This document shows positions 15,670 to 30,770 of a stretch of 64,000 nucleotides of DNA, in pieces (positions within the stretch are counted from its first letter, which is position 1; every line of letters starts with the position of its first letter). A program made the position numbers and the translations under genes. The stretch is taken from positions 19,975 through 83,974 of the forward strand of contig JACRDT010000012.1 in the NCBI GenBank assembly GCA_016212795.1, given 5' to 3'. The DNA comes from Elusimicrobiota bacterium (GTDB lineage: Bacteria; Elusimicrobiota; Elusimicrobia; UBA1565; UBA9628). The notes beneath the pieces were generated by a model. That model worked only from the letters and a program-made list of their open reading frames with translations, had not been told where the DNA came from and did no database searches.

Positions 15670-17495
15670 GGGAGCCTCCCCATCCTGTCGTGGTGCGGCG
15701 GCGGCAGTATCGGAGGCTTCTCGGACGCCTTGAACTTCTTCTCCACCTCCACCTCGGTGAGCAGGAGGCTCGGGGCGATGGCCGAGACCGGCACGCTGCC
15801 GGACTCGGCGCCGCAGGTGCCGTTGAAGACGTCGTCGTCGTCCGCCGCGGCGACGATCTTCGTGAACGACGCCAGGGGCGTGCCCACGATGTCCACGCCG
15901 CGGACGACCTCGTCGGGCCTGCCGTCCGGGTAGACCCGGTAGACCAGCAGGGGGATGACCTTGAAGGACTGGGTGGCCCCCCGCCCGGTCATCGTGAACC
16001 CTCCCGAGATGTCGTCGAAGACCAGCCCGTAGGGCTTGCGCTGCAGCTTGATCTGGGCGATGAGCATCTCCCGGAGCTTCGCGTAGGGGACGCTGCGCGA
16101 GGCGGTGACGATGGTGTTGCCCATGCGGGCCACGATCGGGTGCCCGGGCTCCCGCCTGCCGTGCCCGTTGGAGGCCGGGAAGCCCTTGATGGGCGAGCGC
16201 GTCATGAGGAAGCCCTTGAGGATGCCGTTCTCGACCAGGGACACCCGCCGCGCGGGGACGCCCTCGTCGTCGAACTTGTAGAAGCCCCGCAGGAACTGGT
16301 CCTTGAAGCGGGGCAGGGTGGCGTCGTCGGCGACGCTGATGAAGTCCGCGGTGATGGGCTGGCCGAGCTTCTTGGTGAAGGTCTGGCCCTCCCGCTCGAG
16401 CTTCTGGCGGTGCCCCTCGACGCGGTGGCCCATGATCTCATGGAAATAGACCGCCGAGGCGCGGGCGCGGAAGATGGCCGGCCCCGTGTAGGGTTCGACG
16501 AGGGGGGCCTTGGTGAGCGCGTCGAGCTCCCTGGCGGAGCGCTCGATGTCCTGGAGGATCATCGCGTCCGCCGGCAGGCCTTCCAGGGCGTCGGAGTCGT
16601 AGCTCTGATGGCGCATGAGGTCCATGCCGTCGGCGGTCCGGGCCCTCAGGGAGTAGCTCAGGCGCGCGTAGCGGTTGCCGGTCACGACCTCGGTCCTCTC
16701 CGTGTTGACGATGTAGCGGTTGATGGCCTCGGCGTCGAGGCTGACGTGGGAGGCGATGATGAAGGGGTACTTCTTGAAGATGCCCGAGAGGTTCTTGAGG
16801 CGCCGGCGCCAGGCCTCCTTGTCGGGGGCGTGCGGGGGGACGGTCTCGTAGGAACGGGCGGGCTGCTGCAGGGAGAAGTCGTCGGACTTGTCCTCCTCCT
16901 CGGCGGTCACGGCCTTGTTCGTGAGGACCTTGGTGTAGTTCTCGCGGGCGGCCTTGAAGACCCTGTCCGTGTGGAGCCAGATGGCCGACCGGATGGCGTC
17001 CTCGTCGTCGGACTCCGGGAGGGAGGAGGAGCCGCTCCCGTCGCGGTCGAACCACCCGCCCATGCCCTTGACCTGGTGGGTGTTGTCGAACCGCCGGTCG
17101 CCGATGCGGGCGTCGATCGTGAGCTGGCGGGAGTGCCGGTCGGATTCGTAGCGGATGGCGCCGAGCAGGGCGCTCAGGTAGTACTCCTTGTCGTCCTCGA
17201 CCTCGTAGGAGAGGAAATAGAGGGGCGGCTTCTCCGCCAGCTGGAGCGGCTCGAAGGAGCGGCCGAGCTCCTTGCGCAGCGCCCGCAGCAGGGCGTCGTC
17301 GTCCGGCGACCGCGCGCCCTCCAGGGGCGCGCCGGGAGCGGAGGGGACGCTCGCGGGCGGCGCTTCCTTGCGCGAGGCCCCCTCCGGCGAGGGGGCGACG
17401 GCCGGCGCCTTCGGCTGCTGGGACGGCGGGCGCTTGCCTGCCGGCGCGGCGCTCAATGACAGGCACAGCGTGGCGATCCAAAACGGACCAATCAT
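15666..17495 (-). CDS. Secreted TldD-like zinc metalloprotease (HExxxH present)
   Basis: Signal peptide MIGPFWIATLCLSLSAAPA after AGGAGG Shine-Dalgarno; HEIMGHRVEGH motif; ..SNGHGRREPGHPIVARMGNTIV.. family signature; tandem with, and overlapping, the tldE-like gene. Confidence 0.7.
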   Translation of the reverse strand: MIGPFWIATLCLSLSAAPAGKRPPSQQPKAPAVAPSPEGASRKEAPPASVPSAPGAPLEGARSPDDDALLRALRKELGRSFEPLQLAEKPPLYFLSYEVEDDKEYYLSALLGAIRYESDRHSRQLTIDARIGDRRFDNTHQVKGMGGWFDRDGSGSSSLPESDDEDAIRSAIWLHTDRVFKAARENYTKVLTNKAVTAEEEDKSDDFSLQQPARSYETVPPHAPDKEAWRRRLKNLSGIFKKYPFIIASHVSLDAEAINRYIVNTERTEVVTGNRYARLSYSLRARTADGMDLMRHQSYDSDALEGLPADAMILQDIERSARELDALTKAPLVEPYTGPAIFRARASAVYFHEIMGHRVEGHRQKLEREGQTFTKKLGQPITADFISVADDATLPRFKDQFLRGFYKFDDEGVPARRVSLVENGILKGFLMTRSPIKGFPASNGHGRREPGHPIVARMGNTIVTASRSVPYAKLREMLIAQIKLQRKPYGLVFDDISGGFTMTGRGATQSFKVIPLLVYRVYPDGRPDEVVRGVDIVGTPLASFTKIVAAADDDDVFNGTCGAESGSVPVSAIAPSLLLTEVEVEKKFKASEKPPILPPPHHDRMGRLP

Positions 17496-17577
17496 GTGTC
17501 CTCCTGCAGACGGTAGATTGTAGTACACACGGCAAGGAGTCCGCTAGTTGACAGTCGGGTGGCATAGGAGGCATCAT

Positions 17578-18729
17578 GTGCGCGCGATGCGAATCCGGTG
17601 GCGCGGCGGGCTGGCGGCGGTCGCGGCGCTGGCGTTGGCCGGGTGCACGTCGCGGGCGGATCTGGCGGAGCGCGCCTACGGGCGGGGCGACTACGCCGAG
17701 GCCATGGGGCTGGCGCGGCCCCTGGGCGAAAAGGGCGACCCCAGGATGCAGAACCTCGTGGGGCTGATGTCCGCCAAGGGGGAGGGCGTGCCCGCCGACC
17801 CGACCCAGGGCGCCGTCTGGTACCGCCGGGCGGCGGAGCAAGGGCACCTCTCGGCCGCGATCAACCTGGGGGTGCTCTACGCGGACGGCCGGGGCGTCAC
17901 CAAGGACGGCGCCGAGGCGCTGAGGTGGCTCCGGGTGGCGGCGGACAAGGGCGAGGAAGTGGCCCAGAAGCTCATCGGGGACCTCTATCTCGACGGCGAT
18001 TGCGTCCCGAGGGACGACGCCGAGGCCGCCCGCTGGTACAAGAAGGCCGTGGACCACGAGTACAGCCCGTTCGACAAGGGCTACGCGCCGGCCCAGCATC
18101 GCCTGGGCCTGCTCTACGAGCGCGGCTGGGGCGTCCCCCGGTCCGGCGCGGAGGCGGCCAAGTGGATGCGCAAGGCCGCGGAGCAGGGCAACGCCGGCGC
18201 GCAGGTCGACCTCGGGCTGCTCTACCAGGGAAAGTCCGGCGTCAAGCGCGACTACGCCGAGGCGGCGCGCTGGTTCGGCAAGGCCGCGCTCGCGGGCGAC
18301 GCCTCCGCGCAGAACTTCCTCGGGGTCATATACGAGAGGGGCAACGGCGTGGCCAAGGACGAGACCGCGGCGTTGGCCTGGTACCTGAAGGCGGCGGACC
18401 AGGACCATCGGCTCGCCCAATACAACGCCGGCGTGCTCTATGACGAGGGGCGCGGCATCCGCCAGGACCTCGGCCAGGCGGTCGCCTGGCTGCGCAAGTC
18501 CGCGGAGGGAGGCGAGACCCGCGCTCAGAACCGCCTCGGGATGTCGTATTTCAAGGGGCGGGGGGTCCCGCGCGACTTGACGCTGGCCTATGTCTGGTGC
18601 TGGCGCGCCGGCAAGAAGGGCCTGACGGTCGGGCTGGAGAACGCGGCGGTCATCAAGAAGGCCATGACGGCCAAGCAGTCGGCCGAGGCCCGGAAGATGA
18701 TCGAGCTCGTCGACAAGAAGCGCCCGTGA
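17578..18729 (+). CDS. Sel1-like repeat (SLR) lipoprotein
   Basis: Lipobox LALAGCTS; about 8 Sel1 repeats (..AEAARWYKKAAEQGHAGAQ..LG.LY..G.GV..D); GTG 17578 is 6 nt after AGGAGG (ATG 17587 is an alternative start). Confidence 0.7.
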   Translation: MRAMRIRWRGGLAAVAALALAGCTSRADLAERAYGRGDYAEAMGLARPLGEKGDPRMQNLVGLMSAKGEGVPADPTQGAVWYRRAAEQGHLSAAINLGVLYADGRGVTKDGAEALRWLRVAADKGEEVAQKLIGDLYLDGDCVPRDDAEAARWYKKAVDHEYSPFDKGYAPAQHRLGLLYERGWGVPRSGAEAAKWMRKAAEQGNAGAQVDLGLLYQGKSGVKRDYAEAARWFGKAALAGDASAQNFLGVIYERGNGVAKDETAALAWYLKAADQDHRLAQYNAGVLYDEGRGIRQDLGQAVAWLRKSAEGGETRAQNRLGMSYFKGRGVPRDLTLAYVWCWRAGKKGLTVGLENAAVIKKAMTAKQSAEARKMIELVDKKRP

Positions 18730-18750: not shown

Positions 18751-19392
18751 CTATTCGAGCGGCACGAGCTTGGCCGGGTCGTAGGCCGGGCCCGCCTTGG
18801 AGAAGACCAGCATGAGGTGGTTGACCCGGGTCTGGTCGTACTGGTCGTGCCAGCGGACGAGGAACTCGGCCTTCGGGATGAACGCGTAGTTGCCCAGGGT
18901 GGACGGGTCCATGAAGTAGAGGTTCCGTTCGTCGTGGCCGATGGCCACGGCGTAGTGCCCGTCGTCCCAAGCCCCGGCATAGTCGACGGCGCCCTCCGCC
19001 CAGGCCTGGAAGGCCACGATGACGGGCTTCCCGGCGTCCAGCGCCGCGGTGAGGTCCTCCAGCGGGGCGTCGAGCGCGGCCTTCGCGTCGATGCCGTGTT
19101 CGCGGGCGAGCTCGACGATCTTCCAGTAGCGCGTGCCCTGCTCCGGGTCGGACCCGAGCTTGCGGGCCAGCTCGTCTTCCCGGATGTCCTCCCCGTAGTA
19201 GCCGAGGATGGATTGGAGCGCGGCGGCGCCGCAGGTGTAGGGCGTGGATTGGCGCACCAAGGGAAGGCGGATGAGGTCCTTGGGGGCATGGGCGGCCGGA
19301 GCGGCGGACGGCCTGGCCGCCGAGCGGGGAGTCCGGGGCGACGCGGCGCAGCCGGCCAAGCCGACGGCGATCCCGAGGATGGCGGCTATCAT
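18751..19392 (-). CDS. C39-like (papain-fold) cysteine peptidase lipoprotein
   Basis: Lipobox GLAGC; catalytic Cys context STPYTCGAAALQSILGYYG and His context GHYAVAIGHD typical of the Peptidase_C39_2 family; start overlaps GNAT stop (ATGA). Confidence 0.6.
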   Translation of the reverse strand: MIAAILGIAVGLAGCAASPRTPRSAARPSAAPAAHAPKDLIRLPLVRQSTPYTCGAAALQSILGYYGEDIREDELARKLGSDPEQGTRYWKIVELAREHGIDAKAALDAPLEDLTAALDAGKPVIVAFQAWAEGAVDYAGAWDDGHYAVAIGHDERNLYFMDPSTLGNYAFIPKAEFLVRWHDQYDQTRVNHLMLVFSKAGPAYDPAKLVPLE

Positions 19393-20021
19393 GCCAGCAG
19401 CAGGCCCATGGCGTGGAGGGCCGCGCCCGCTTTGAGTTCGCCGCGCGCGAGCTCCCGGAAGCCCAGGCTTTCGTAGAACCCGCGGGGACCGTCGCCGCAG
19501 ACGAGGTGGACGCCCGGCACGCGCTCCTCCCTCAAGCGCAGGATGAAGAGGTCCATGAGGCGCCTGCCCACGCCCTTGCCGTGGAACGCGGGGTCCACGT
19601 TGACGTGCAGGTGGGCGGGATAGATGGTCAGGACGGCGCCGAGGAACTTGAGGGCGAGCCGCCGCGCCGGGTCGGCCTCCAGGCCGAGGAATTTCCTGCG
19701 GAAGGCCCGGGCGTCGGGGCTTTCCTTGAAGACGCCGAGCGACTTCCAGAGGAGGGGCCAGCGGTGCAGGAAATGACGGCGCAGGACGAACGGCGCCGTC
19801 GCCGGGCACCCGGTCAGGTAGCCGATGACCTTGCCGTCGTGCCGCGCGGTGTGCGTCCAGTCCGGCGCCCACCTCTCGTAGGGGCCGACCCAGTACTCGG
19901 CGAAGAACCCCCGGCGCTCCTCGGGGATCCCCTGGCCCGACGACGCCGTCCTGCAGCAGATCCCGCGGATCGCTTCCCAGTCCTGGGCCCCGCCCGGCTT
20001 GCCGTAGGCGATGTCCATCAT
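19389..20021 (-). CDS. GNAT-family N-acetyltransferase
   Basis: Acetyl-CoA binding motif HGKGVGRRLM; 210 aa; overlaps both neighbours by 4 nt. Confidence 0.65.
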   Translation of the reverse strand: MMDIAYGKPGGAQDWEAIRGICCRTASSGQGIPEERRGFFAEYWVGPYERWAPDWTHTARHDGKVIGYLTGCPATAPFVLRRHFLHRWPLLWKSLGVFKESPDARAFRRKFLGLEADPARRLALKFLGAVLTIYPAHLHVNVDPAFHGKGVGRRLMDLFILRLREERVPGVHLVCGDGPRGFYESLGFRELARGELKAGAALHAMGLLLA

Positions 20022-21610
20022 GGGCGCGTCCCTGCAGGGGATTTCCAGATCGCGCGGTAGCGCTCCAGGAGCTCCTCATAAGACCGGCGGGCCGATTCGG
20101 CGCGCTTGCGGTCGAGGTTCCCCCAGGCCTTGGCGGCGTTGAGGTAGGGCGGCGGCCAGGCCGGGTCGAGGGAGACGGCCGCGTCGAACTCCTCCGCGGC
20201 CTGGCGGAGCCGGCCGAGCTCGAGCAGCGCCGTGCCGAGGTCGTTGCGGATGCGGGCGTCGCGCGGGGCCAGCGCCGAGGCTTCCCGCAGCACGTCCTCG
20301 GCGCCGGCGTATTGGCGCAGCCCCAGCCGGGCCAGCCCGAGGTAGCGCAGGACGCCCGCGTCCCTCGGGGACAAGGCCCTGGCCCGGTCGAGGTCGTACG
20401 CGGCCCCCGGGAAATCCTCGGCCAGGAGGCGGTAGCATCCCCGCAGGTAATGGGAGAACGCGTTCTCCGGCGCGCAGGCGACCGTCTGGTCGCAGAACGC
20501 CTCAGGCTGGCGGTAGGCGCCGCTGCGGGCGGCCGACGAGCCGGCCCAGACCACGGCGACGGCGTAGAAGACGAGACGGCCCTTCATGCCGCGCAGGTGG
20601 GCGGCCAGGGCCAGGCAGGGGCCGGCGGCCGCCAGGTACAGATAGCGGTCGGCGACCGGGTTGTAGTGCGCGAACGCCACGACGTGGAGGAAGGGCGCCA
20701 GCGCGGCGACGGTCCAGGCCAGGCCGAAGAGCGTCGCGGGGTCGCGGCGGCGCAGCCAGGCCAGCGCGGCCGCGGCCGCGGGCAGGAGATAGAGCGCCGG
20801 CCCTGGCTTGAGCGAGCGGACCATGCACAAGGGGAACGGCCAGAGGATCGAGCCCAGGTACCAGCCGAGCGCGAGGTAGGGCTGCCTCGGGGCCGCGATG
20901 TCCAAGGGCCCGGGGGGGACGAGCCAGGCGAACCGCACGAGCAGGTAGAGCCCCGCCGCGGCGGCGTGGGGGAGGGCGGCCGCGAGCAGCCTCGCGCGGC
21001 GGCCGGGCCGCAGGATGGCGATGTCCGCCGCGATCAGGAGGAGCGCGGCCAGCCCCGTCTCCTTGGAGAGCAGCCCCACGACCAGGCAACTCCACGACGC
21101 CGCCAGCCAGGGCGCGGGCTTGCGGGCGCTGGCGGCGCGGTCCCAGCAGAGCCATGCCGCGACGCAGCACGCGGCGGCCATGATGTGCCCCTTGTAGGCC
21201 GAGACGGCGAGGGCCTCCGTGTGCGTCGGGAAGACGAGGAAGAGCGCTCCGGCCAGGGCCGCTTCCAGGCGGCCGGCGAAGCGTCGGGCCGCCAGGTACA
21301 CCGCGAACGAGGCCAGTGCGTGGAGGCCGAGGCCCGCGAGCCGGTAAGCCCAGGCCGGCTCGTGGAGGAAATAGTGGAACAGGGTGACCAGCGGCTGGTA
21401 GGTCCGTTCGGTCGTGAAGGCGAAGTAGCCCGGCGAGAAGAGCCCGGCCGCGAAGTTCCGCCAGGGGAGCTCGAAGACGCCCTGCTTGAGGACGTAGGAG
21501 AGGTCGTCGAGGAATACCGGGGCCGGCAGGATGGCGCCGTAGACGGCCAGGACGCCGGCCGAGTAGGCCGCCGCCACGACCGCCGAGAACCTGGCTTCTT
21601 CGGAGCGCAT
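20018..21610 (-). CDS. Polytopic membrane protein (GT-C/PMT-ArnT-like fold) with C-terminal TPR repeats
   Basis: About 11 TM helices followed by TPR repeats (..AYDLDRARALSPRDAGVLRYLGLARLG..); start taken at internal ATG 21610 (MRSEEARFSAVV..). Confidence 0.55.
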   Translation of the reverse strand: MRSEEARFSAVVAAAYSAGVLAVYGAILPAPVFLDDLSYVLKQGVFELPWRNFAAGLFSPGYFAFTTERTYQPLVTLFHYFLHEPAWAYRLAGLGLHALASFAVYLAARRFAGRLEAALAGALFLVFPTHTEALAVSAYKGHIMAAACCVAAWLCWDRAASARKPAPWLAASWSCLVVGLLSKETGLAALLLIAADIAILRPGRRARLLAAALPHAAAAGLYLLVRFAWLVPPGPLDIAAPRQPYLALGWYLGSILWPFPLCMVRSLKPGPALYLLPAAAAALAWLRRRDPATLFGLAWTVAALAPFLHVVAFAHYNPVADRYLYLAAAGPCLALAAHLRGMKGRLVFYAVAVVWAGSSAARSGAYRQPEAFCDQTVACAPENAFSHYLRGCYRLLAEDFPGAAYDLDRARALSPRDAGVLRYLGLARLGLRQYAGAEDVLREASALAPRDARIRNDLGTALLELGRLRQAAEEFDAAVSLDPAWPPPYLNAAKAWGNLDRKRAESARRSYEELLERYRAIWKSPAGTRP

Positions 21611-21759
21611 CCCCGCCACAATATACGAAAGGCGGCCCGAAGCCGCAACCTCGGAGGGCTTCACGGGAGGCCGGGAGCCCGTCCAGGGCGCCGGACTCAT
21701 AATGCTATAATCTTCCTCGCCGTCGGGTCCGTCTCTTCCCCGCGGGACCCCGTTTCGAT

Positions 21760-24339
21760 ATGTCCAACGCGCCGACCCTCAAGGACCCCGTCGCCGTCCT
21801 GCGCCGCTCCCGGCTGATGCAGTCCTTGCCGGAGGCCGGGCTGAAAGCCGTGTCGGCCGCCATGCGGCCCAGGGCGTTCGACCCTGGCCGGCTGCTCATC
21901 AAGCAAGGGGAGCCGGGCGGCTGCTTCTACCTCATCGCGTCCGGCTTGGTCGAGGTGCAGGTGCGCACGGAGGGGGGCACGACGGCCGTCGTGGCCACGC
22001 TGCGCGAGGGGGATTGCCTCGGGGAGATGTCCCTCCTGTCGGGCGACGTCACCTCGGCGGACGCGCGGGCTCTCGAGCGGACCGAGACCCTGGCGCTGGA
22101 AGCCGGCGCCTTCGACGCCCTCCTGCAGGCCCATCCCGAGCTGCTGCGCGAGTTCGTCCGCATCCTGTCGCGCCGGCTGGGCGCGACCGACGTCGCGGTG
22201 GGGCTGGCCCGGGAGGACGAGAAGGCCCTCGCCCAACTGCTGCGGGAAGGGAAGGCCGACCAGTACGGCGAGCTGATCGGCAAGCACGCGACGATGACAG
22301 CGCTGAACCGGGAGATCGACAAGCACGCGTCGTCGGATGACCCTTTGCTCGTCCTGGGCGAGCGCGGCACGGGCAAGGAGATCGTGGCCAGGCTGGCCCA
22401 CCTCCGGGGGCCCCGCAAGGACGCGCCGATCGTCAGCGTGCAGTGCGACCAGATCAGCGAGACGCCCTGGGGCGACAAGCTCTTCGGCCTCCACCACAAG
22501 GGCGCCGGCACCCCGCGCTCCCGCGGCGTGTGCTACATGACCCTGGCGGAAGGCGGGACGCTCGTCCTCAAGGATGTCGAGCTGCTCCCCGTCCCCATCC
22601 AGGAGCGGCTGGCGGAGTTCATCGAGAAGAACCCGGGGGCCAAGGCCGGCCTGCGGTTCATCGCGACCTCCCGGGCGCGCCTGGTCGAGCTGGCCCAGAC
22701 CGGGAAGGTGTCCGAGTCGCTGGCCCGGGCCTTCGCGGGCGGCGCCATCGTCGTGCCGCCGCTGCGGGACCGCAAGCGGGACATCGGCGAGCTGGCCCGC
22801 CATTTCGTCCGCCGGCACGCCGAGCGGCTCAACAAGCCGGTCCAGGGCCTCAGCGACCAGGCCATGACCAAGCTGGTCTCCCACGACTACCGCGGCGCCA
22901 ACATCCAGGAGCTCAAGGAAGCCCTGGAGCGCGCCGTGGTCCTCACGGACGACAAGACGGTCGGCGCCGAGGAGATCTTCCTCGGCCATCCCGCCAAGGC
23001 GCGGCGGCACATCTTCAACTTCCTGTCCCTCAAGACCGCGCTGGTGCGCCGGGCGCTGGTGGTGGTGCCGAGGATGGTGCGCCCCTTGAGCGCGGTCTTC
23101 TTCGCCTTCATCCTCTACCAGTGCTTCGCCGGGACCCCGCGGGACGGCGGCAACCTGGGCGTCGTGCTGGTGTGGGCGGTCTGGTGGCCGGCGCTGGCCC
23201 TGTCGTTCTTCGTCGTGGGGCGCCTGTGGTGCGCGGTCTGCCCGATGGCCCTGGCCGGGTCCGGAGCGCAGCGGGTCCGGGGGCTCAAGTGGCGCATCCC
23301 GGCGTGGCTGAAAGACCACGACACCTATCTCGCGCTGGCGGGCTTCACCGGCATCATCTGGCTCGAGGAGGCCACGGGGATGCGGCACGCGCCCGTCGCC
23401 ACGGGGCTGTTCCTGCTCTCCATCCTGGCGGGCGCCGCGACCGCGAGCGTCCTCTTCCCCCGTCGGACCTGGTGCCGGCATCTCTGCCCCCTGGGCTTCT
23501 TCGCCGGACTGTGCTCGGAGTCGGCCATGCTCGAGCTGCGGCCGACGGCGGACATCTGCTCGGCCAAGTGCACGGGCCATGCGTGCTACAAGGGCGACGA
23601 GCGGGTCGCGGGGTGCCCCGTGTTCAACCACGTGATGTTCATGGACTCGAACCAGCACTGCGTCCTGTGCATGAACTGCGTGCAGACCTGCCCCAACGAC
23701 TCGGTCCAGCTGAACCTGCGGCTGCCCGCCTCCGAGCTGTGGTCGCGGCCGAACGTGGAGAAGGGCGCGGCCAGGTTCTTCGCCGTGCTGCTGGGCCTTC
23801 TGCCGTGCCTGGCCTTCATCCAGCATTGGGATGCGACGCTCCAGGCGGGGTGGGCGTGGCTCCTGGCGGGGCACCGCACCGCGTCCCTGACCATCATCCT
23901 CGGCCTGGGCGTCGCGGCGCCTCTGGCCCTGCTCGAGTTGATCGTCCGCCCGCTCCACGACCCCGAGGACCCCTTGCCGGCCGAGCGGGTCTGGCGCAAG
24001 GTCCTGGCGTGGGGGCCCCTGGTGACGGCCGGGTTCGCGTGCTATCAGCTCGCCTATCTCCCCGGCATGGGCAACCTGCGGCTCGCCCTGGGGTTCCTGC
24101 CGCTCGAGGGAGGAGGGGTCCGGTCGCTGTGGCTGCCGGTGCTGGGCTTGAGCCGGGTCGCGATCATGGCCGCCGGGCTGATGACCTCCGCGGCCGTCAT
24201 GTGGAAGCTCGCGCATGACGCCAAGGGGAGCGGCGGCAAGAGGCGGCTCTGGGGGCATCTGCTGAACCTGGCCTGCGCCACGGCTTACGCGGCGGCCCTC
24301 ACCCTGCTCATGGTCAGACCCAGGTGGCTGGGATTATGA
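21760..24339 (+). CDS. Three-module protein: cNMP-binding (CAP effector) domain + sigma54-activator-type AAA+ ATPase lacking GAFTGA + NapH/NosR-like polytopic membrane polyferredoxin
   Basis: cNMP motifs GEPGGCFYLIASG..GEMSLL; Walker A GERGTGKE; bEBP core (..IVVPPLRDRKRDIGELARHF..DYRGANIQELKEALERAV) with the GAFTGA position reading GAGTPRS; no HTH; C-terminal TM region with CAVCP and CRHLCP (CX2-3CP) motifs plus one atypical cluster CSAKCTGHAC..GCP and one canonical 4Fe-4S cluster CVLCMNCVQTCP. Confidence 0.75.
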   Translation: MSNAPTLKDPVAVLRRSRLMQSLPEAGLKAVSAAMRPRAFDPGRLLIKQGEPGGCFYLIASGLVEVQVRTEGGTTAVVATLREGDCLGEMSLLSGDVTSADARALERTETLALEAGAFDALLQAHPELLREFVRILSRRLGATDVAVGLAREDEKALAQLLREGKADQYGELIGKHATMTALNREIDKHASSDDPLLVLGERGTGKEIVARLAHLRGPRKDAPIVSVQCDQISETPWGDKLFGLHHKGAGTPRSRGVCYMTLAEGGTLVLKDVELLPVPIQERLAEFIEKNPGAKAGLRFIATSRARLVELAQTGKVSESLARAFAGGAIVVPPLRDRKRDIGELARHFVRRHAERLNKPVQGLSDQAMTKLVSHDYRGANIQELKEALERAVVLTDDKTVGAEEIFLGHPAKARRHIFNFLSLKTALVRRALVVVPRMVRPLSAVFFAFILYQCFAGTPRDGGNLGVVLVWAVWWPALALSFFVVGRLWCAVCPMALAGSGAQRVRGLKWRIPAWLKDHDTYLALAGFTGIIWLEEATGMRHAPVATGLFLLSILAGAATASVLFPRRTWCRHLCPLGFFAGLCSESAMLELRPTADICSAKCTGHACYKGDERVAGCPVFNHVMFMDSNQHCVLCMNCVQTCPNDSVQLNLRLPASELWSRPNVEKGAARFFAVLLGLLPCLAFIQHWDATLQAGWAWLLAGHRTASLTIILGLGVAAPLALLELIVRPLHDPEDPLPAERVWRKVLAWGPLVTAGFACYQLAYLPGMGNLRLALGFLPLEGGGVRSLWLPVLGLSRVAIMAAGLMTSAAVMWKLAHDAKGSGGKRRLWGHLLNLACATAYAAALTLLMVRPRWLGL

Positions 24340-24749
24340 CGGGCAAGGGAGCGCGGGGCCCGCTCGTGCGGCTGCTCGTCCTCCTCATCGGGCTCCACAG
24401 CTGCGCTCTGGGCCTGCTGATGCTCTTCAAGCCGGGCCTGATGACGCGGCTGTTGGGATTCCCTGGGGGGATCCCGGTCTTCTTCCCGTCGCAGTCCGGC
24501 ATCTTCCTCCTCATCCTGGGGGCGTGCTACCTCCGGGCCCTGTCCGAGAGCTCCTACCTCTGTGTCATCGTCGGCTCGAAGGCGGCGGCCGTCCTCTTCC
24601 TCGTCGCGCACGCGGCCTTCCTCGGCGCGCCTCCCACCGTCTGGCTGGCGGCCGCCGGCGACGGCGGCATGCTGGCCGTCCTGGTCGCGGCATGGCGCTG
24701 GGAGAGCCTTCGGCCGGCGCCGCCGGTCGCGGCGTCCGACCGGCCGTAG
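24336..24749 (+). CDS. Small 4-TM membrane protein, hypothetical
   Basis: ATG 24336 overlaps stop of the fusion gene (ATGA); hydrophobic LVRLLVLLIGLHSCALGLLMLF.. Confidence 0.5.
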   Translation: MTGKGARGPLVRLLVLLIGLHSCALGLLMLFKPGLMTRLLGFPGGIPVFFPSQSGIFLLILGACYLRALSESSYLCVIVGSKAAAVLFLVAHAAFLGAPPTVWLAAAGDGGMLAVLVAAWRWESLRPAPPVAASDRP

Positions 24750-24759
24750 TCCGCGCGCC

Positions 24760-27147
24760 ATGATCGACCGCCCGTCGGCAGCCAGGCGCCGTCTCTCGGA
24801 CCGGGCCTTGGGCCGGGCGGTCTTCGCCGCGGGTTGGTGCGTATGGCTCGCGCTGGAGGCCTCGCTCCTGCCCGTCGACGTCATGGACCTGGCCTACCTC
24901 CTGTCGCTCGAGCACGGCAGGTGGGTCATCCAGGAGTTGGTCCACCCGGCGTTCGTGCCCCTGCTCGCCGGCTGGCGCGGGCTCCTGGGGCTCTTCGGCT
25001 ACTCGGGCGCGATGCTCTTGCCCGTCGGCGCTCTGAACCTGGCGGCCAGCGCCGGCCTGCTGGCGGGGCTGTTCTTGTGGGTGGAGAGCTGGACGGCCGA
25101 TTCCCTGGCCGCGGCCTTGAGCGTCCTGCTGGCCGGGTTCATGGAGGGCGTCGCCCCGGGCTGCTTGAGGCCCACGCCCTACGCCCTGGCGGCCTGCGCG
25201 AGCGCGGCGTGCCTGGTCCTGTTGTCCGGCCTGGCCCCTGGGGGCCAGGCCGTCGCAGGCGCCGGGAGTTCTTTGCGCTACGCCGCGTCCGGCGCCGCGG
25301 GGGGGCTTGCGGCCTCGCTCCACGCCTCCGCCATGTCCCTGGTCCCCGTCGCCGCGGCGGCCGTGTTCCTCGACGGCCGGGCGCGGCCGTCCCGCGGCCG
25401 CTCGCTGCTGGCGTGGGCGGGGGCGTTCCTGGCGGTGGTCCTCGCCAGCTGCGCCGCCCTCCGCGCCCGCCACGGCATCGGGTGGGAGTTCCTCAGGTCG
25501 ATCGACCCGGTTCGGGCGTTCTTCGCCGTGGAGCAGCACCCCCGGACCTCCATCTTCACGAGCGGGGACCTCGGCAAGCAAGTCGCGGACTATGGGTGGA
25601 CCCTGTTTTGGCAGGGAGGGCCTTTCTTGTTCCTCGTCGCGGCCATGGTGCCGGCCGCGTTCTTCCTCAGGCGCCGCGGTCCCGCCGGGTCGTCGGGATC
25701 CTCCACGCCCGCGCCCGCCTTGCCGCTGGCCGTGTCGTTCCTGAATCTCCTCGCTTTCGCGGCGTTCTTCCTTATCAACAACACCAGCAACGGCTTCATC
25801 TTCGCGGGCCTGCTCCTGCTTCCCCTGCCGCTGGCCCTGGCGGCCGCGGAGCCGCGATTGCGCCGGCTGTTCGTGCCGGCCTCCCTGGCGGCCCTGGCGT
25901 GGAGCGCCCTGTGCCTGCCTCGTCACACGATGGCGCGAAGCAACGACCCGATGCTCGCCGAGGTGCGGTCCCTGGAATCCTTGCTCGGCCCGCGCGACGT
26001 CCTGCTCCTGCCGGGCTCCCCCTATCCCGAGGCGCTCTACCTCCGGCATTTCAACATCCTGGACATCGGCGACTGGGATGACGGCCCGCCCTTCCCGGAG
26101 GTTCCGCGGGCGCGGCCCGGGCCAGGACTGCTGGAGAGGGTGGATTCCTATCTGCGCCGCGGGCGCAAGGTCTTCTTCTCTGCGGGTGATGTGGATTTCC
26201 TCCCGGCTTTGACCCTCCATGGCGCCTGGAAGGACCGCCAGGTCTTCATGCCGGCCAAGCTCGCGCCGGGGGACAGAAAGGAGGAGGCGGCCGGCCTCAT
26301 GCGGCTGTTCGGGTCCCGCTTCGAGCTCGCCGCGGCCGGCCGCTCGCCCCGCGGCGTGGTTTTTTATCGGTTGGCCAGGCGCGGCGTCCTCAGGACGGGC
26401 TCCGAGGTTGGCGCTGGCGGACTTCCCGGCGAGCGCCGCTTCTCCCTGGATGCCGGCCGTTGGCGGGTGGGGTACCTCCGGCGCTGGCTGGCGCTCGCGC
26501 CGGAAGACGAATATGCGCTGCGCGACTTGGACGAGGCGGTCGCCGAGTCGAAGGTATTTTTCCCCGCGGACAGGGGTCTCGTCGTCGAGGCCGCGAGCTT
26601 GGCCGGGCTCTGGGCCGTCCGGATGGGCAGGCCCCGGCTGGCCGCCTCGATCCTCGAGCGCGCGGCGCGGGCCCGGCCCGACGACGCCGAACTCCAGGGC
26701 GAGCTGGCGTCCGCGGCGTGGTCTTCAGGGCAAAGGGACGCGGCCCTTCGGGCCCTCTCCAGGGCCGAGTCGCTCCGGCCCGACGAGCGCAACCGGCACC
26801 GCATGGCCATCCTCCACATGGAGCTCGGCCGCCACCGGCCCGCTCTCGAGCTCCTCGACGGCTTGGTCCGCGAGCATCCGGTCGACGGCCGCTACCTCAG
26901 CGACCGCGGCATCGTCAAGGAATACCTGGGGCTGAGGAAGGAAGCCCTGCGGGACCTGCGGTCCGCGCTGGAGCGTGACCCCGGCTGCCTGCCAGCGGCG
27001 CTCAGCCTGGGCGGGATCTACTCCTCGCAGGGGCGCCCGCGGGAAGCCCTGGCCGTCTACGACAAGGCTCTCTCCCGCCCCTCCTCGGCCGAGCTGCGTC
27101 CCCTCCGGGAGCGGGTCCTCGCCGAGAGAGCGAAGCTGAAGCCCTGA
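24760..27147 (+). CDS. Polytopic membrane protein (GT-C-like) with C-terminal TPR repeats, paralogous in architecture to 20018..21610
   Basis: Multiple TM helices for ~450 aa, then TPR repeats (..LERAARARPDDAELQGELASAAWSSGQRDAALRAL..); ATG 24760. Confidence 0.55.
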   Translation: MIDRPSAARRRLSDRALGRAVFAAGWCVWLALEASLLPVDVMDLAYLLSLEHGRWVIQELVHPAFVPLLAGWRGLLGLFGYSGAMLLPVGALNLAASAGLLAGLFLWVESWTADSLAAALSVLLAGFMEGVAPGCLRPTPYALAACASAACLVLLSGLAPGGQAVAGAGSSLRYAASGAAGGLAASLHASAMSLVPVAAAAVFLDGRARPSRGRSLLAWAGAFLAVVLASCAALRARHGIGWEFLRSIDPVRAFFAVEQHPRTSIFTSGDLGKQVADYGWTLFWQGGPFLFLVAAMVPAAFFLRRRGPAGSSGSSTPAPALPLAVSFLNLLAFAAFFLINNTSNGFIFAGLLLLPLPLALAAAEPRLRRLFVPASLAALAWSALCLPRHTMARSNDPMLAEVRSLESLLGPRDVLLLPGSPYPEALYLRHFNILDIGDWDDGPPFPEVPRARPGPGLLERVDSYLRRGRKVFFSAGDVDFLPALTLHGAWKDRQVFMPAKLAPGDRKEEAAGLMRLFGSRFELAAAGRSPRGVVFYRLARRGVLRTGSEVGAGGLPGERRFSLDAGRWRVGYLRRWLALAPEDEYALRDLDEAVAESKVFFPADRGLVVEAASLAGLWAVRMGRPRLAASILERAARARPDDAELQGELASAAWSSGQRDAALRALSRAESLRPDERNRHRMAILHMELGRHRPALELLDGLVREHPVDGRYLSDRGIVKEYLGLRKEALRDLRSALERDPGCLPAALSLGGIYSSQGRPREALAVYDKALSRPSSAELRPLRERVLAERAKLKP

Positions 27148-27891: not shown

Positions 27892-28377
27892 TCAGGAGCG
27901 GCCGGATTCGAGGGCCTTGATGCGGCCCTCGTGGTCCTTGACCTGGGCCTGGACTTCGGTCAGGGAGTGGCCGTGGAGCACGGCGGCCCGGTCGTAGCTC
28001 TGCGCCTTGCCGGCGAAGGAGTCGATGGCGCTAAGGATGCGCTGGATGTCCTCCTTGGTGGAGAGCCCTTTCATCGTTTGCTGAATGCCGCGGATATCTG
28101 ACTGCGTTTGCACGATTGCCTTGGCGAGGCGGTGCTGGACTCCTTCGATCTTTCCGTCCAGACGAGTCTCGACGGCCTTGAGCTCGCCGCGCAGGGCATC
28201 CGTGGTCGTCTTGATGTCGGACTTGAGCTCTCCGCGCACGGTGTCCGCGGTGGATTTGATCTCGCCGCGCAACATGGCCGCGGTGGCCTGAAGTTCTCCC
28301 CGCAGCATGGCTGCCGTGGCATCGAGGTGGCCCCGCGTGGCCGGGCTGCTCGCTTCAGCGTGAGTCATGTCGTCCAT
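27892..28377 (-). CDS. Coiled-coil protein with AAMLRGEL heptad-like repeats, hypothetical
   Basis: ..TAAMLRGELQATAAMLRGEIKSTADTVRGELKSDIKTTTDALRGELKAVETRLDGKIEG..; start ambiguous (ATG 28377 after a GGGGGAA Shine-Dalgarno, or upstream to 28461). Confidence 0.45.
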   Translation of the reverse strand: MDDMTHAEASSPATRGHLDATAAMLRGELQATAAMLRGEIKSTADTVRGELKSDIKTTTDALRGELKAVETRLDGKIEGVQHRLAKAIVQTQSDIRGIQQTMKGLSTKEDIQRILSAIDSFAGKAQSYDRAAVLHGHSLTEVQAQVKDHEGRIKALESGRS

Positions 28378-28589
28378 TATATCATTCCCCCGGAACCGCG
28401 TAAGAGTCGAAAGCCCCATCCGGCCGTGGGCCTCCGCCATGTATACGAATGAAAGGCCCATTTGGTTCCGCGCGCTGGAATGCCCACGATCTGGCGGTCA
28501 AGAGAAACGCTGCCCGATTCCCGCCTCTGCGTTGTCGAAATAGGATAGAATGAACCACTGACCGGACTCACGCAGGACGGGGTGGCACG

Positions 28590-30770
28590 ATGACGCTCTG
28601 CAGACGCTTCCGGCTCGTCGCATGGGTGCTGGCCCTTGGCGCCATGGGCGGCCCGGGAGCGACGGCCCAGGACCGGTGGCCGGACCTCGCCGCGCCCGCC
28701 AAGGCCGTGGGCGGGGGCGGGCACGACGCGGCCGTGGTGGTGGGCGTGGAGGATTACCTCCTCGTGGCCGACGTGCCGGGGGCCGAGGCCAACGCCAAGG
28801 CGTGGTACGACTACTTCACCGAGACGCGCGGGCTGCCGGTCCAGAACGTCAAGCTCGTGACCGGCGTGGACGCCACCCGCGAGGAGATGCTCGCCGCGGT
28901 GCGCAGCGCGGCCGGCAAGGCCGGGCAGGATGGGACGCTGTGGTTCGTGTTCATCGGGCACGGGGCGCCGTCCAAGGACGGCAAGGACGGGCTCCTGGTG
29001 GCCGTGGACGCCCAGCAGAAGGCCGCCACCCTCCAGGAGAGGAGCCTCAAGCGCTCGGAGCTCCTCAAGGCGCTCTCTGAGAGCCGCGCCGGCTCCATCC
29101 GGGTCGTGCTCGACGCGTGCTTCTCCGGCAGGCTGGCGGACGGCGGCTCGATCGCGCCGGGGCTTCAGCCCCTGGTCACGGTATCGATGGCCGATCCCAC
29201 CGACGCCAGGATGGTGGTCCTGACGGCAGCCAGAGGCAACCAGTTCGCCGGCGCCCTGCCTGGAGCCAGGCGACCCGCGTTCAGCTACCTGGTGCTGGGG
29301 GGGCTTCGCGGCTGGACCGGGAAGGCCACGGTGACTGCCGGGGACCTGTGGCGCTACGCCGTCGACGCCCTGGAGGCTACCCTGCGCGGCAGGGACCAGT
29401 GGCCCGAACTGATCGGCCGCCAGGACGCGGTGGTCGGCGCTGCCGCGGGCGAGAAGGGCCCGAACCTCGCCGGCCTGGCCAAAGCCACGGCAGGGGCAGG
29501 GGCGCAGGATGAGATGTTCCGGGTCTCGAACCTGCCGCGGGTCCCCAAGGCCCAGGCGCCCGCGGCCGTCGCGGACATGGCCGGCGGGGCGGATTTCCGC
29601 AACCTGGACGTGGAGGCGCTGGGGCGCTACGACGAAGCCACGAAGTTCGACGAGGGCGAGGCTTCTCCCGAGGAGAAGGCGTCCAAATGGCTCGAGCTGG
29701 CCAAGAGCGCGCCGCAGTTCGCCGGGAAAGCCGAGGCGAGGGCGGCCCAATGGGACCGCTACGCCCAGGAGCTCGCCGCGGGCCAGGAGGCGCGTCAGAA
29801 GCGCGCCGAGGCCATGGACAGGGACTGGGAGAAGTTGGGCAAGCTGTTGGCCATGAGGGTGGTGCCCGACGCGGACAAGAAGCGCTGGGCGGCGGCGTTC
29901 GTCGAGGCGTACGGCAGGACCTCGCGGGAGAACCCCTATGTCGCGGACCTGGCCAGGCACCTGCCGCCGGGGACGGTCAAGGTCGAGCCCGGAGCCAAGG
30001 CGTCCGCCGGCGGCCGCGCCGGGTCGGTCCAGGCCGGCAAAGCCGGCGTCGAGTGGGTGAGGATCCCGGGCGGGACCCTCGCGATGGGCGCCGACGACCG
30101 GCCGGAGACGAAGCCCCGGCATCCCGTGACGGTCAAGGCCTTCCAGCTGGCGAGGACCGAGGCGACCAACAAGCAGTACCGCGCCTGCGTCGAGGCCGGG
30201 GCCTGCTCCCCCGCGCATGCCTCGGACGGGACATGCCGGGTGTGGGACGGCGGCCAATGGGCTCTCGGCAGCCTGGCGGCCTCGTTCCAGGCCGACGACC
30301 ACCCCGTGGTGTGCGTGGACTGGGGCCAGGCGAAAGCCTTCGCCGAATGGGCCGGGGGGAGGCTCCCGAGCGAGGCGGAGTGGGAGCACGCGGCCCGCGG
30401 CGCCGGCAAGGAGCGGGCGTACCCCTGGGGCGACGAGGAGCCCACGTGCGAGCGGGCCGTGATGAGCCAGGACGACAACGGCTGCGCGAGGAACGCGACG
30501 TGGCCCGTGTGCTCGAAGGCCGCCGGGAACACGGCGCAGGGGCTCTGCGACATGGCGGGCAACGTCGGGGAGTGGACGCAGGACTGGTATCACGCCTCGT
30601 ACGACGGCGCGCCGGCCGACGGTCTCGCCTGGGAGAGGCCAGCGTCCGCGGCCCGGGTCGTCCGCGGCGGGGGCTGGGGCAACGACGCCGACGGCGTCCG
30701 GGCCGCGTACCGCGTCGGCTACGACCCGGGCGAGCTCAGCGACTACCTCGGCGTGCGTCCCGCCCGCTGA
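28590..30770 (+). CDS. Secreted caspase-like (peptidase C14) domain fused to a formylglycine-generating-enzyme (FGE-sulfatase/SUMF1-like) domain
   Basis: Signal peptide; caspase His/Cys dyad contexts FVFIGHGAP and RVVLDACFSG; C-terminal FGE fold (WVRIPGGTLAMGADD..HPVVCVDWGQAKAFAEWAGGRLPSEAEWEHAARG..GNVGEWTQDWY). Confidence 0.8.
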   Translation: MTLCRRFRLVAWVLALGAMGGPGATAQDRWPDLAAPAKAVGGGGHDAAVVVGVEDYLLVADVPGAEANAKAWYDYFTETRGLPVQNVKLVTGVDATREEMLAAVRSAAGKAGQDGTLWFVFIGHGAPSKDGKDGLLVAVDAQQKAATLQERSLKRSELLKALSESRAGSIRVVLDACFSGRLADGGSIAPGLQPLVTVSMADPTDARMVVLTAARGNQFAGALPGARRPAFSYLVLGGLRGWTGKATVTAGDLWRYAVDALEATLRGRDQWPELIGRQDAVVGAAAGEKGPNLAGLAKATAGAGAQDEMFRVSNLPRVPKAQAPAAVADMAGGADFRNLDVEALGRYDEATKFDEGEASPEEKASKWLELAKSAPQFAGKAEARAAQWDRYAQELAAGQEARQKRAEAMDRDWEKLGKLLAMRVVPDADKKRWAAAFVEAYGRTSRENPYVADLARHLPPGTVKVEPGAKASAGGRAGSVQAGKAGVEWVRIPGGTLAMGADDRPETKPRHPVTVKAFQLARTEATNKQYRACVEAGACSPAHASDGTCRVWDGGQWALGSLAASFQADDHPVVCVDWGQAKAFAEWAGGRLPSEAEWEHAARGAGKERAYPWGDEEPTCERAVMSQDDNGCARNATWPVCSKAAGNTAQGLCDMAGNVGEWTQDWYHASYDGAPADGLAWERPASAARVVRGGGWGNDADGVRAAYRVGYDPGELSDYLGVRPAR

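Follow-up and report, generated by a model that had tools for sequence, protein, structure and literature searches.

The stretch analysed here, referred to as the window, comprises 64,000 nucleotides with a G+C content of about 70% from an Elusimicrobiota bacterium (assembly GCA_016212795.1, contig JACRDT010000012.1), and harbors at 21760..24339 of the plus strand a gene whose 859-aa product unites three modules in a single chain: a sensor resembling cyclic-nucleotide-binding (CNB) domains, a degenerate AAA+ domain of the sigma-54-activator type, as known from the bacterial enhancer-binding proteins (bEBPs), and a NapH-like polyferredoxin domain with about nine transmembrane (TM) helices. The gene product is identical to P0001, an NCBI protein from a metagenome-assembled genome (MAG), which is named 'sigma 54-interacting transcriptional regulator [Elusimicrobia bacterium]'. 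A sequence-only reading had described the product of this single 859-aa open reading frame (ORF) as a fusion of sensor, ATPase and polyferredoxin; the ORF has been borne out, and all the motifs quoted for it were found, namely GERGTGKE, DKLFGLHHKGAGTPRS, CAVCP, CRHLCP, a canonical CxxCxxCxxxCP and an atypical Cys-rich motif.

The chain opens with a CAP-type beta-barrel (aa 38-125, 21871..22134), for which the proposed assignment as a CNB domain is upheld by a match to PF00027 (cNMP_binding) above the Pfam cut-off (E 2.5e-21; 75.9 bits vs 27.5). A long helix (aa 126-166, 22135..22257), taken from the secondary structure of the AlphaFold2 (AF2) model, links this sensor to the alpha/beta subdomain of the AAA+ module (aa 172-334, 22273..22761), which is recognized by PF00158 (Sigma54_activat), by alignment to ZraR and by Foldseek. 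The PF00158 match covers aa 172-309 and profile positions 1-138 of 168 (E 2.1e-21; 76.8 bits vs a cut-off of 20.2). Within this subdomain lie the predicted Walker A motif GERGTGKE (aa 200-207, 22357..22380), a degenerate L1/GAFTGA loop, GDKLFGLHHKGAGTPRS (aa 238-254, 22471..22521), and a degenerate Walker B motif, GTLVLKDV (aa 266-273, 22555..22578), in which K271 and D272 occupy the Asp and Glu positions of the bEBPs. The lid subdomain (aa 336-406, 22765..22977; AAA_lid_14, PF25601, E 1.3e-16) follows, with Q383 in ANIQELKE at the sensor II position. The NapH-like four-helix membrane core comes next (TM1-TM4, aa 427-579, 23038..23496), delimited by PF12801 (Fer4_5), TIGR02163, hydropathy and the AF2 model, and it leads into a predicted cytoplasmic two-cluster ferredoxin-like domain (aa 590-655, 23527..23724), which is marked by invariant Cys residues and a weak Fer4 match at aa 633-647. 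Five further TM helices, predicted from hydropathy and the AF2 model of the membrane domain, form a C-terminal bundle (aa 668-852, 23761..24315). The absence of a C-terminal helix-turn-helix (HTH) domain, also claimed earlier, agrees with a Pfam scan of the protein at E <= 0.01, in which no HTH family was matched. The full-chain AF2 model has a mean predicted local distance difference test score (pLDDT) of 89.4.

The same architecture is found far beyond this genome. A homologue search that covered 5.8 billion proteins returned 205 protein clusters, nearly all of which are 780-930 aa in length and carry the identical precomputed Pfam set; their hosts include Elusimicrobia, Armatimonadota, Acidobacteria, Firmicutes (Thermincola ferriacetica and Desulfitobacterium metallireducens) and many cyanobacteria, such as Geitlerinema sp. 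PCC 7407, Coleofasciculaceae and Pleurocapsa. In a scan with one genome per species, relatives were present in at least 459 genomes, including those of anammox Planctomycetes, Desulfosporosinus, Dehalococcoidia, Nitrospirae, Desulfobulbales, Desulfomonile and Chondromyces, together with the cultured cyanobacteria Nostoc, Calothrix, Fischerella, Scytonema and Leptolyngbya. The architecture is not rare, and belongs to a large, misannotated family. All its parts are known domain types, and databases already contain the family, though with a name that misleads; the searchable literature, which is incomplete, yielded no paper on this combination of domains, in line with the earlier statement that the architecture was not recognized as described.

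This distribution also bears on the simplest objection, which holds that an assembly error or a frameshift, for which the region near 22950-23100 had been singled out for checking, joined two separate genes into one. Colinear full-length homologues are known from more than 100 independent sequences, complete genomes among them, and their alignments run without a break through the junction of the AAA+ and membrane domains, where the juxtamembrane linker is itself conserved (L421 and L422 at 90% or more) and the AF2 model is continuous and confident. An artefact of this kind is therefore excluded for practical purposes, its probability being next to nil, and no support for it was found at this locus. 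The sole comparable case is that of an Armatimonadetes MAG (L013, 2030-5092), in which the homologue's ORF runs on into the reading frame of the small neighbouring partner gene described below through an Arg/Gly-rich stretch that looks out-of-frame. A Rosetta-stone fusion of the two proteins, as this ORF might be taken to be, was dropped, the joining segment being probably a frameshift in that MAG.

The fold of the AAA+ domain is well preserved. In Foldseek, it matches NtrC1, ZraR, PspF and FleQ with target-normalised TM-scores of 0.8-0.86, the highest value being reached with NtrC1, and VpsR is also among the structural matches of this part; the best of all is the inactive-state structure of the NtrC1 receiver and AAA+ domains (1ny5), with 288 aligned columns. 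These fold matches, along with PF00158, sustain the earlier assignment of a sigma-54-type AAA+ domain that lacks GAFTGA. The description of its core as complete did not survive the comparison of motifs, which was made with HMMER alignments to ZraR (1ojl, E 8e-35) and NtrC1 (1ny6). The Walker B segment reads GGTLVLKDV, against GGTLFLDEI in the reference bEBP; the arginine-finger segment reads GKVSESLARAF, against GKFREDLYYRL, so that the finger positions hold Ser and Ala; the sensor II segment reads ANIQELKE, against GNVRELKN, with the Arg replaced by Gln (Q383); the hairpin preceding sensor I is shortened; and the position of GAFTGA is occupied by GAGTPR, within HHKGAGTPRS.

A census of 111 homologues demonstrated that these losses are a property of the family. 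Walker A, whose presence in the window protein had been noted correctly, is near-invariant, with G200 and G203 at 100% and position 206 held by Lys (91%) or Arg (9%). The Walker B Asp position (271) is filled by Asn in 60 sequences, by Lys in 33, by Arg in eight and by Asp in none, and the adjoining Glu position by Asn in 86, Asp in 13 and Glu in five; no conservation is seen in the arginine-finger columns. At sensor II, the clade of the window protein has lost the Arg, and only the cyanobacterial clade, in which the L1 loop is deleted, has kept it. When the survey was widened to 264 family sequences, including those found by the membrane domain alone, no Asp-Glu pair was seen in any of the 166 recognizable Walker B strands, and no GAFTGA-like motif occurred. 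Deep-branching variants with GAF or REC domains retain the pre-sensor-I hairpin and remnants of GAFTGA (EGAFISS, SGAFSFAS), and their catalytic residues are lost all the same. The domain is 47-58% identical within clades and is therefore under selection rather than decaying. An AAA+ domain in which Walker A persists but the catalytic Asp-Glu of Walker B, the arginine fingers and, in this clade, the Arg of sensor II have all gone probably binds nucleotide without hydrolysing ATP.

These observations also dispose of the database label, according to which the protein would be a membrane-tethered, sigma-54-interacting transcriptional regulator. The label is understandable from the match to PF00158 and from the N-terminal 420 aa, whose NCBIfam matches are almost all to named bEBP models, many of them with E-values of 1e-23 to 1e-39; the scores of these equivalog models, however, all lie far below their cut-offs, the best being that of FlbD with 136.5 bits vs 750. 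The protein resembles NtrC1, ZraR, PspF and FleQ in its AAA+ fold, with 28-37% identity, in the order of sensor, linker helix and AAA+ domain and in the interchangeability of REC and GAF sensors within its family, and differs from them in that GAFTGA, Asp-Glu in Walker B, the arginine fingers and, in this clade, the sensor II Arg are missing, that the pre-sensor-I hairpin is shorter and that a nine-TM Fe-S domain replaces the HTH domain. Moreover, members are plentiful in cyanobacteria, which as a phylum are reported to have neither sigma-54 nor its activators (PMC3162934). Loss of the sigma-54 contact motif has precedents in TyrR, DhaR, HupR and VpsR, which work without sigma-54 and are often mislabelled as activators of it (PMC3162934); a DNA-binding domain is retained at the C-terminus of those proteins, which are sigma-70-dependent transcription factors, whereas the members of the present family are integral membrane proteins without a DNA-binding domain. 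With GAFTGA, HTH and catalytic residues missing, with about nine TM helices and with this abundance in sigma-54-less cyanobacteria, the protein almost certainly neither activates sigma-54 nor works as a classical transcription factor, as had been surmised, and the probability that the label is true is very small.

The membrane half of the protein carries the features expected of an electron-transfer module. Its topology was derived from hydropathy, the AF2 helices and the positive-inside rule, which together predict about nine TM helices, four NapH-like and five more, rather than the roughly six of the sequence-only reading, with the N-terminus inside and the C-terminus outside. Modelled alone (aa 421-859), the domain reached a pLDDT of 91.9 and a predicted TM-score (pTM) of 0.90. 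TM1-TM4 span aa 427-566, and CAVCP (C491, C494, P495; CxxCP) after TM2 and CRHLCP (C572, C576, P577; CxxxCP) after TM4 are both predicted to be cytoplasmic. They are accompanied by an atypical cluster motif, C600-x3-C604-x4-C609-x9-C619-P, and a canonical one, C634xxC637xxC640xxxC644P, so that the earlier description of an NapH-like Fe-S domain with these two Cys-Pro motifs and one cluster of each kind was accurate. All 12 motif Cys residues are invariant in the 111 homologues, as are W472, E536 and R594, and W475, W476, P477 and E537 are conserved at 90% or more. The ferredoxin-like domain is the most conserved part of the protein, with 67-80% identity within clades. Two [4Fe-4S] clusters would thus be bound by the cytoplasmic Cys motifs, and the topology model would put the Trp cluster (W472, W475 and W476, with P477) and E536/E537 on the periplasmic face. 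A beta-hairpin (aa 774-793) lies within the C-terminal five-TM bundle.

By profile comparison, the membrane domain is homologous to NapH/MauN yet outside that family proper, both family scores falling below the cut-offs: TIGR02163 is matched over profile positions 74-253 of 255 with E 9.7e-9 and 35.1 bits vs 213, and NF007013 with E 1.2e-7 and 31.1 bits vs 234. PF12801, by comparison, is matched in two stretches with 36.7 bits (39.3 for the isolated domain) vs a cut-off of 22, and no solved structural relative of the domain was found in the fold searches. Of the groups compared, the broad Fer4_5 'NapH-like' class and the CNB fold are the only ones to which the protein can be assigned. Its predicted topology resembles that of NapH/MauN in the succession of four TM helices, each pair of which would be followed by a Cx(2-3)CP motif on the cytoplasmic side, and then of two ferredoxin-type motifs on that side; the protein departs from NapH/MauN in that its first motif is CxxCP and not CxxxCP, its first cluster is the atypical Cx3Cx4Cx9CP, and a cytoplasmic head of 420 aa, made up of sensor and AAA+ domains, and five more TM helices at the C-terminus are added. 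NosR/NirI and PceC/RdhC also possess a NapH-like polytopic Fe-S core and raise the same question of regulator or electron conduit (PMC8238504), but the N-terminus of the window protein is a cytoplasmic CNB and AAA+ unit in place of a periplasmic FMN-binding domain, and no nos, nir or rdh context is seen at the family loci. CcoG/YccM and FtrD, too, are polyferredoxins of the membrane, in which two [4Fe-4S] clusters are combined with metal sites formed by Cys motifs (for CcoG, PMC7558416), whereas the window protein has no match to a CcoG or FtrD model at E <= 1 and the family no cbb3-oxidase or ftrABC context; the link to metals comes from stand-alone relatives of the membrane module and not from the sensor-fused family.

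Those relatives were collected in an exhaustive HMMER search with the membrane domain as query, which yielded 1631 representatives, 325 of them at E <= 1e-30; P0452, P0465, P0228 and P0263 are cited as examples of the stand-alone and fused forms. Stand-alone module proteins of about 450 aa, named '4Fe-4S binding protein', occur in Heliobacteria and Symbiobacteriaceae, and other members are fused to SoxA/TsdA cytochrome c, to cupredoxin and COX2, or to YHS. One stand-alone Fer4_5 gene (L092, 1-7452) lies in a heavy-metal operon together with genes for an HMA P-type ATPase, ArsR, an FtrD-like protein, a YtkA-like protein and an ABC transporter, the YtkA-like gene overlapping the Fer4_5 gene by 4 nt. 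Because it exists alone, is fused to redox and metal domains and has one copy in a heavy-metal operon, the membrane module can be regarded, to judge from its sequence relatives, as a putative redox unit in its own right. Among better-known systems, those of the NapH-like type pass electrons to or from extracytoplasmic redox partners (PMC8238504), and CcoG reduces Cu(II) (PMC7558416).

The sensor end of the protein is more ambiguous. Its barrel keeps the G88-E89 pair of the phosphate-binding cassette and has T98 at the position of the phosphate-binding Arg. This Arg contacts the cyclic phosphate in the CAP, PKA and CNG domains and is needed for binding. In the census, position 98 is Thr in 69, Ala in 29, Val in five and Arg in one of the 111 homologues, so that about 99% of the aligned homologues lack the Arg; among 77 genomic homologues, only five or six (Nitrospirae, Dehalococcoidia and one Desulfobulbales) have the canonical R-[ST]-A, and the Gly-Glu pair of the cassette is lost too in the cyanobacterial clade. 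Class III adenylate/guanylate cyclase genes nevertheless adjoin the family gene in eight distinct loci: a CHASE2-cyclase gene stands directly upstream on the same strand in all three anammox Planctomycetes loci (L079, 2542-4956; L025; L031), and further cases are L005 (10976-12148) and the cyanobacterial L047, L050 and L083. The anammox homologues beside the CHASE2-cyclase carry Cys at the Arg position (GEPCCATV), and this residue, taken with the cyclase neighbours, may indicate a cNMP pocket of a non-canonical kind. The CNB domain may have a cyclic nucleotide or something else as its ligand; the cyclic-nucleotide gating proposed earlier is hinted at by the cyclase neighbours and called into question by the missing Arg.

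The other half of that proposal, a cyclic-nucleotide-gated membrane machine for redox chemistry or remodelling that is driven by ATP hydrolysis, has become improbable. An AAA+ fold with an intact Walker A motif, a CNB domain above the Pfam cut-off and the adjoining cyclase genes of some lineages would all suit such a machine, but a Walker B Asp replaced by Lys, Asn or Arg and arginine fingers absent family-wide do not, and neither do the near-universal loss of the phosphate-binding Arg and the lack of an Arg at sensor II in the deep variants and in this clade, as opposed to the cyanobacterial one, which has kept it.

The input domain also varies within the family. HisKA and REC, CNB and GAF, or AIM24 and CNB stand at the N-terminus of different members, while the AAA+/Fer4_5 core remains constant. 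Variable inputs attached to a constant core usually mark the core of a signalling protein as its effector, and for this reason the AAA+/Fer4_5 unit looks like an effector here. One Planctomycetota locus (L011, 2930-9121) contains a HisKA-REC variant and its partner gene, followed on the same strand by a gene for an FHA-GAF-PAS histidine kinase, whose start overlaps the stop of the partner by 4 nt, and 72 nt further on by a stand-alone receiver gene; it looks like an operon that places the core under two-component control.

The partner gene is the only neighbour with a consistent link to the main gene. It encodes a 137-aa protein with four TM helices (24336..24749, plus strand), belongs to a conserved 'hypothetical' family and shares the ATGA overlap at 24336-24339 with the stop of the main gene; the translational coupling claimed for this spot is confirmed, and the gene was recovered in 12 distinct loci with a six-frame profile search. 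Its product is 50-56% identical to those of genes adjoining main-gene homologues in three other loci (L002, L006 and L008), where the partner is immediately downstream with stop and start codons overlapping or nearly abutting. Conversely, each of three look-ups that started from the partner led to a sensor-AAA+-Fer4_5 gene directly upstream, one of them the HisKA-REC variant of a planctomycete. The order is reversed, with the partner upstream, in two Thermodesulfobacteriota/deltaproteobacterial loci (L019 and L028), and the partner was not found next to the cyanobacterial, Firmicutes and Nitrospirae homologues that were examined. All 179 partner homologues are annotated as 'hypothetical', and none has a Pfam domain. 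Polar residues conserved among them are H21, S22, Q53, Y65, K82, H92 and D109. A bis-His haem site formed by H21 and H92 was considered and dropped, the two residues being predicted in opposite leaflets, and homology to the C-terminal five-TM bundle of the main protein was likewise rejected (hhalign probability 0.3%). The four-TM protein is a dedicated partner of the main protein in this clade.

Taken together, the protein is best described as a sigma-54-independent, membrane-anchored pseudo-enhancer-binding protein, that is, as a signal-regulated form of the membrane polyferredoxins of the NapH/CcoG/FtrD type, a reading to which a probability of roughly 0.45 is given. In the mechanism envisaged, the input domain would act by way of the linker helix of about 40 residues on the AAA+ domain, which would hold nucleotide without hydrolysing it, and alter its conformation or its oligomeric state, a step that would follow the logic of activators of the NtrC1 type. 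The change in the AAA+ domain, passed on via the conserved juxtamembrane linker, would then switch electron transfer through the Fe-S module on or off. Electrons might be exchanged between the cytoplasm or the quinone pool on one side and a donor or acceptor outside the cytoplasm on the other, for which a metal ion, a cupredoxin or a cytochrome would be plausible; the conserved Trp and Glu residues predicted to face the periplasm may be involved. If so, the family could represent a new class of signal transducer, in which a hydrolysis-dead AAA+ switch couples second-messenger or phosphorylation inputs to the gating of an Fe-S conduit; this generalization is put forward tentatively, jointly and at the same strength with the idea that in part of the family the four-TM partner acts with such a transducer.

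Several findings weigh against this reading. All-vs-all clustering of the ORFs in 77 loci disclosed no conserved redox-enzyme neighbour, be it a periplasmic reductase, an oxidase or another enzyme; the top neighbour clusters were generic histidine kinases, TPR proteins and lineage-specific housekeeping synteny. What does recur beside the fused family are signalling genes of generic kinds, for example those for histidine kinases, FHA proteins, Ser/Thr kinases and cyclases, a pattern that a role in signalling explains no less well than one in respiration. The metal and copper context of the stand-alone relatives comes from one locus and three types of fusion, and the orientation of the domains to one another in the full-length AF2 model is uncertain (pTM 0.66). 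In addition, P0263 places the membrane module N-terminal to an RsbW-like HATPase_c_2 domain, which is the layout expected of an Fe-S sensor.

These points lend themselves to a signal that flows the opposite way. The Fe-S membrane domain would then sense the redox state of the quinone pool, O2, NO or a metal, the CNB domain would provide a second input, and the dead AAA+ domain would be the output, binding or sequestering a soluble regulator or enzyme, in a manner that recalls the regulatory role first proposed for NosR and NirI. Reverse flow is in keeping with the neighbourhoods of the fused family, made up mostly of signalling genes and never of a conserved redox enzyme, with the joining of the module to a C-terminal kinase-like domain in P0263, with the predicted cytoplasmic position of the Fe-S motifs beside the AAA+ domain, and with the conserved surface of a non-hydrolysing AAA+ domain, which could be a binding platform. 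It meets the difficulty that no soluble partner candidate co-occurs, the only conserved partner being a membrane protein; that REC, GAF and CNB at the N-terminus are classical inputs, which would leave the protein with two or three inputs and no recognizable output domain; and that the L1 loop, with which bEBPs contact their target, is degenerate or deleted. Reverse flow is the main rival and is considered somewhat less likely than the first reading, though the direction of the signal in the pseudo-enhancer-binding-protein reading is itself inferred, and the present data cannot decide between sensor-to-module and reverse flow.

Further features were noted around the gene. A TM+TPR gene lies downstream of the partner (24760..27147, plus strand; TPR Pfam matches), and with its start 10 nt past the partner stop it may be co-transcribed with the partner here. 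Another TM+TPR gene lies upstream and is divergent from the main gene, the intergenic region of 59 nt (21701-21759) containing a perfect TATAAT at 21705-21710; a scan for consensus promoters gave no full -35/-10 site. The sequence-only reading had described both flanking proteins as TM+TPR and GT-C-like: TPR domains are present in both, whereas their TM parts have no Pfam match, which leaves 'GT-C-like' without support, and the two genes do not recur at other loci and were rejected as parts of the system. Neither napA, napB, napC nor napG was found in the window, and the recurrent Pfam-annotated neighbour clusters of the 77 related loci correspond neither to nap genes nor to another reductase. 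Other neighbours occupy 15666-17528 and 27892-28461 on the minus strand and 17548-18729 and 28590-30770 on the plus strand; among them are a TldD/PmbA-type metallopeptidase (PF19289, E 3e-28), a Sel1-repeat protein with eight repeats, a 726-aa protein with a C-terminal FGE-sulfatase/SUMF1-like domain (E 3e-54) and a 189-aa protein with repeated, heptad-like 'LRGELK...' units, none of which recurs beside homologues elsewhere. Two ORFs of the minus strand overlap in different frames, a longer one of 442 aa (18751-20079), with a Peptidase_C39-like domain at aa 272-411, and a shorter one of 210 aa (19389-20021), which codes for a GNAT acetyltransferase. The N-terminal half of the longer ORF is Arg/Pro-rich, as in a wrong frame of high-GC DNA, and a lipoprotein-like signal, MIAAILGIAVGLAGC, comes after an internal Met, which suggests that the real C39-like product is a lipoprotein of some 210 aa and that the GNAT gene lies upstream of its gene.

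For annotation, the consequence is direct. Hundreds of genomes, those of sigma-54-less cyanobacteria included, carry members of this family under the label 'sigma 54-interacting transcriptional regulator' or 'NtrC family response regulator', a label that is wrong on present evidence, and inferences about regulons or sigma-54 that are built on it would be wrong too. A possible member is slr1529 of Synechocystis, which is annotated as 'nitrogen assimilation regulatory protein (ntrX)' although cyanobacteria lack sigma-54; published arrays show its repression under high copper and under iron deprivation, its knockout shows metabolic changes, and it appears in papers only in expression tables or mutant screens.

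If the reading is true, the family would offer a clear example of a bEBP AAA+ domain that has been kept for something besides the ATP-driven remodelling of sigma-54. The electron path and the regulation of NapH, NosR and CcoG-type modules are poorly understood, and a built-in signalling head would provide a handle on how such modules are switched. The hosts include environmentally important anaerobes, such as the anammox Planctomycetes, Desulfosporosinus, Desulfobulbales and Nitrospirae, as well as filamentous cyanobacteria, in which a signal-gated membrane redox step would, if real, be of physiological interest. Should the transducer reading hold, these organisms would possess a post-translational, signal-controlled switch for extracytoplasmic electron transfer or metal-redox activity, and the family would exemplify a new evolutionary fate of the bEBP motor domain in lineages without sigma-54.

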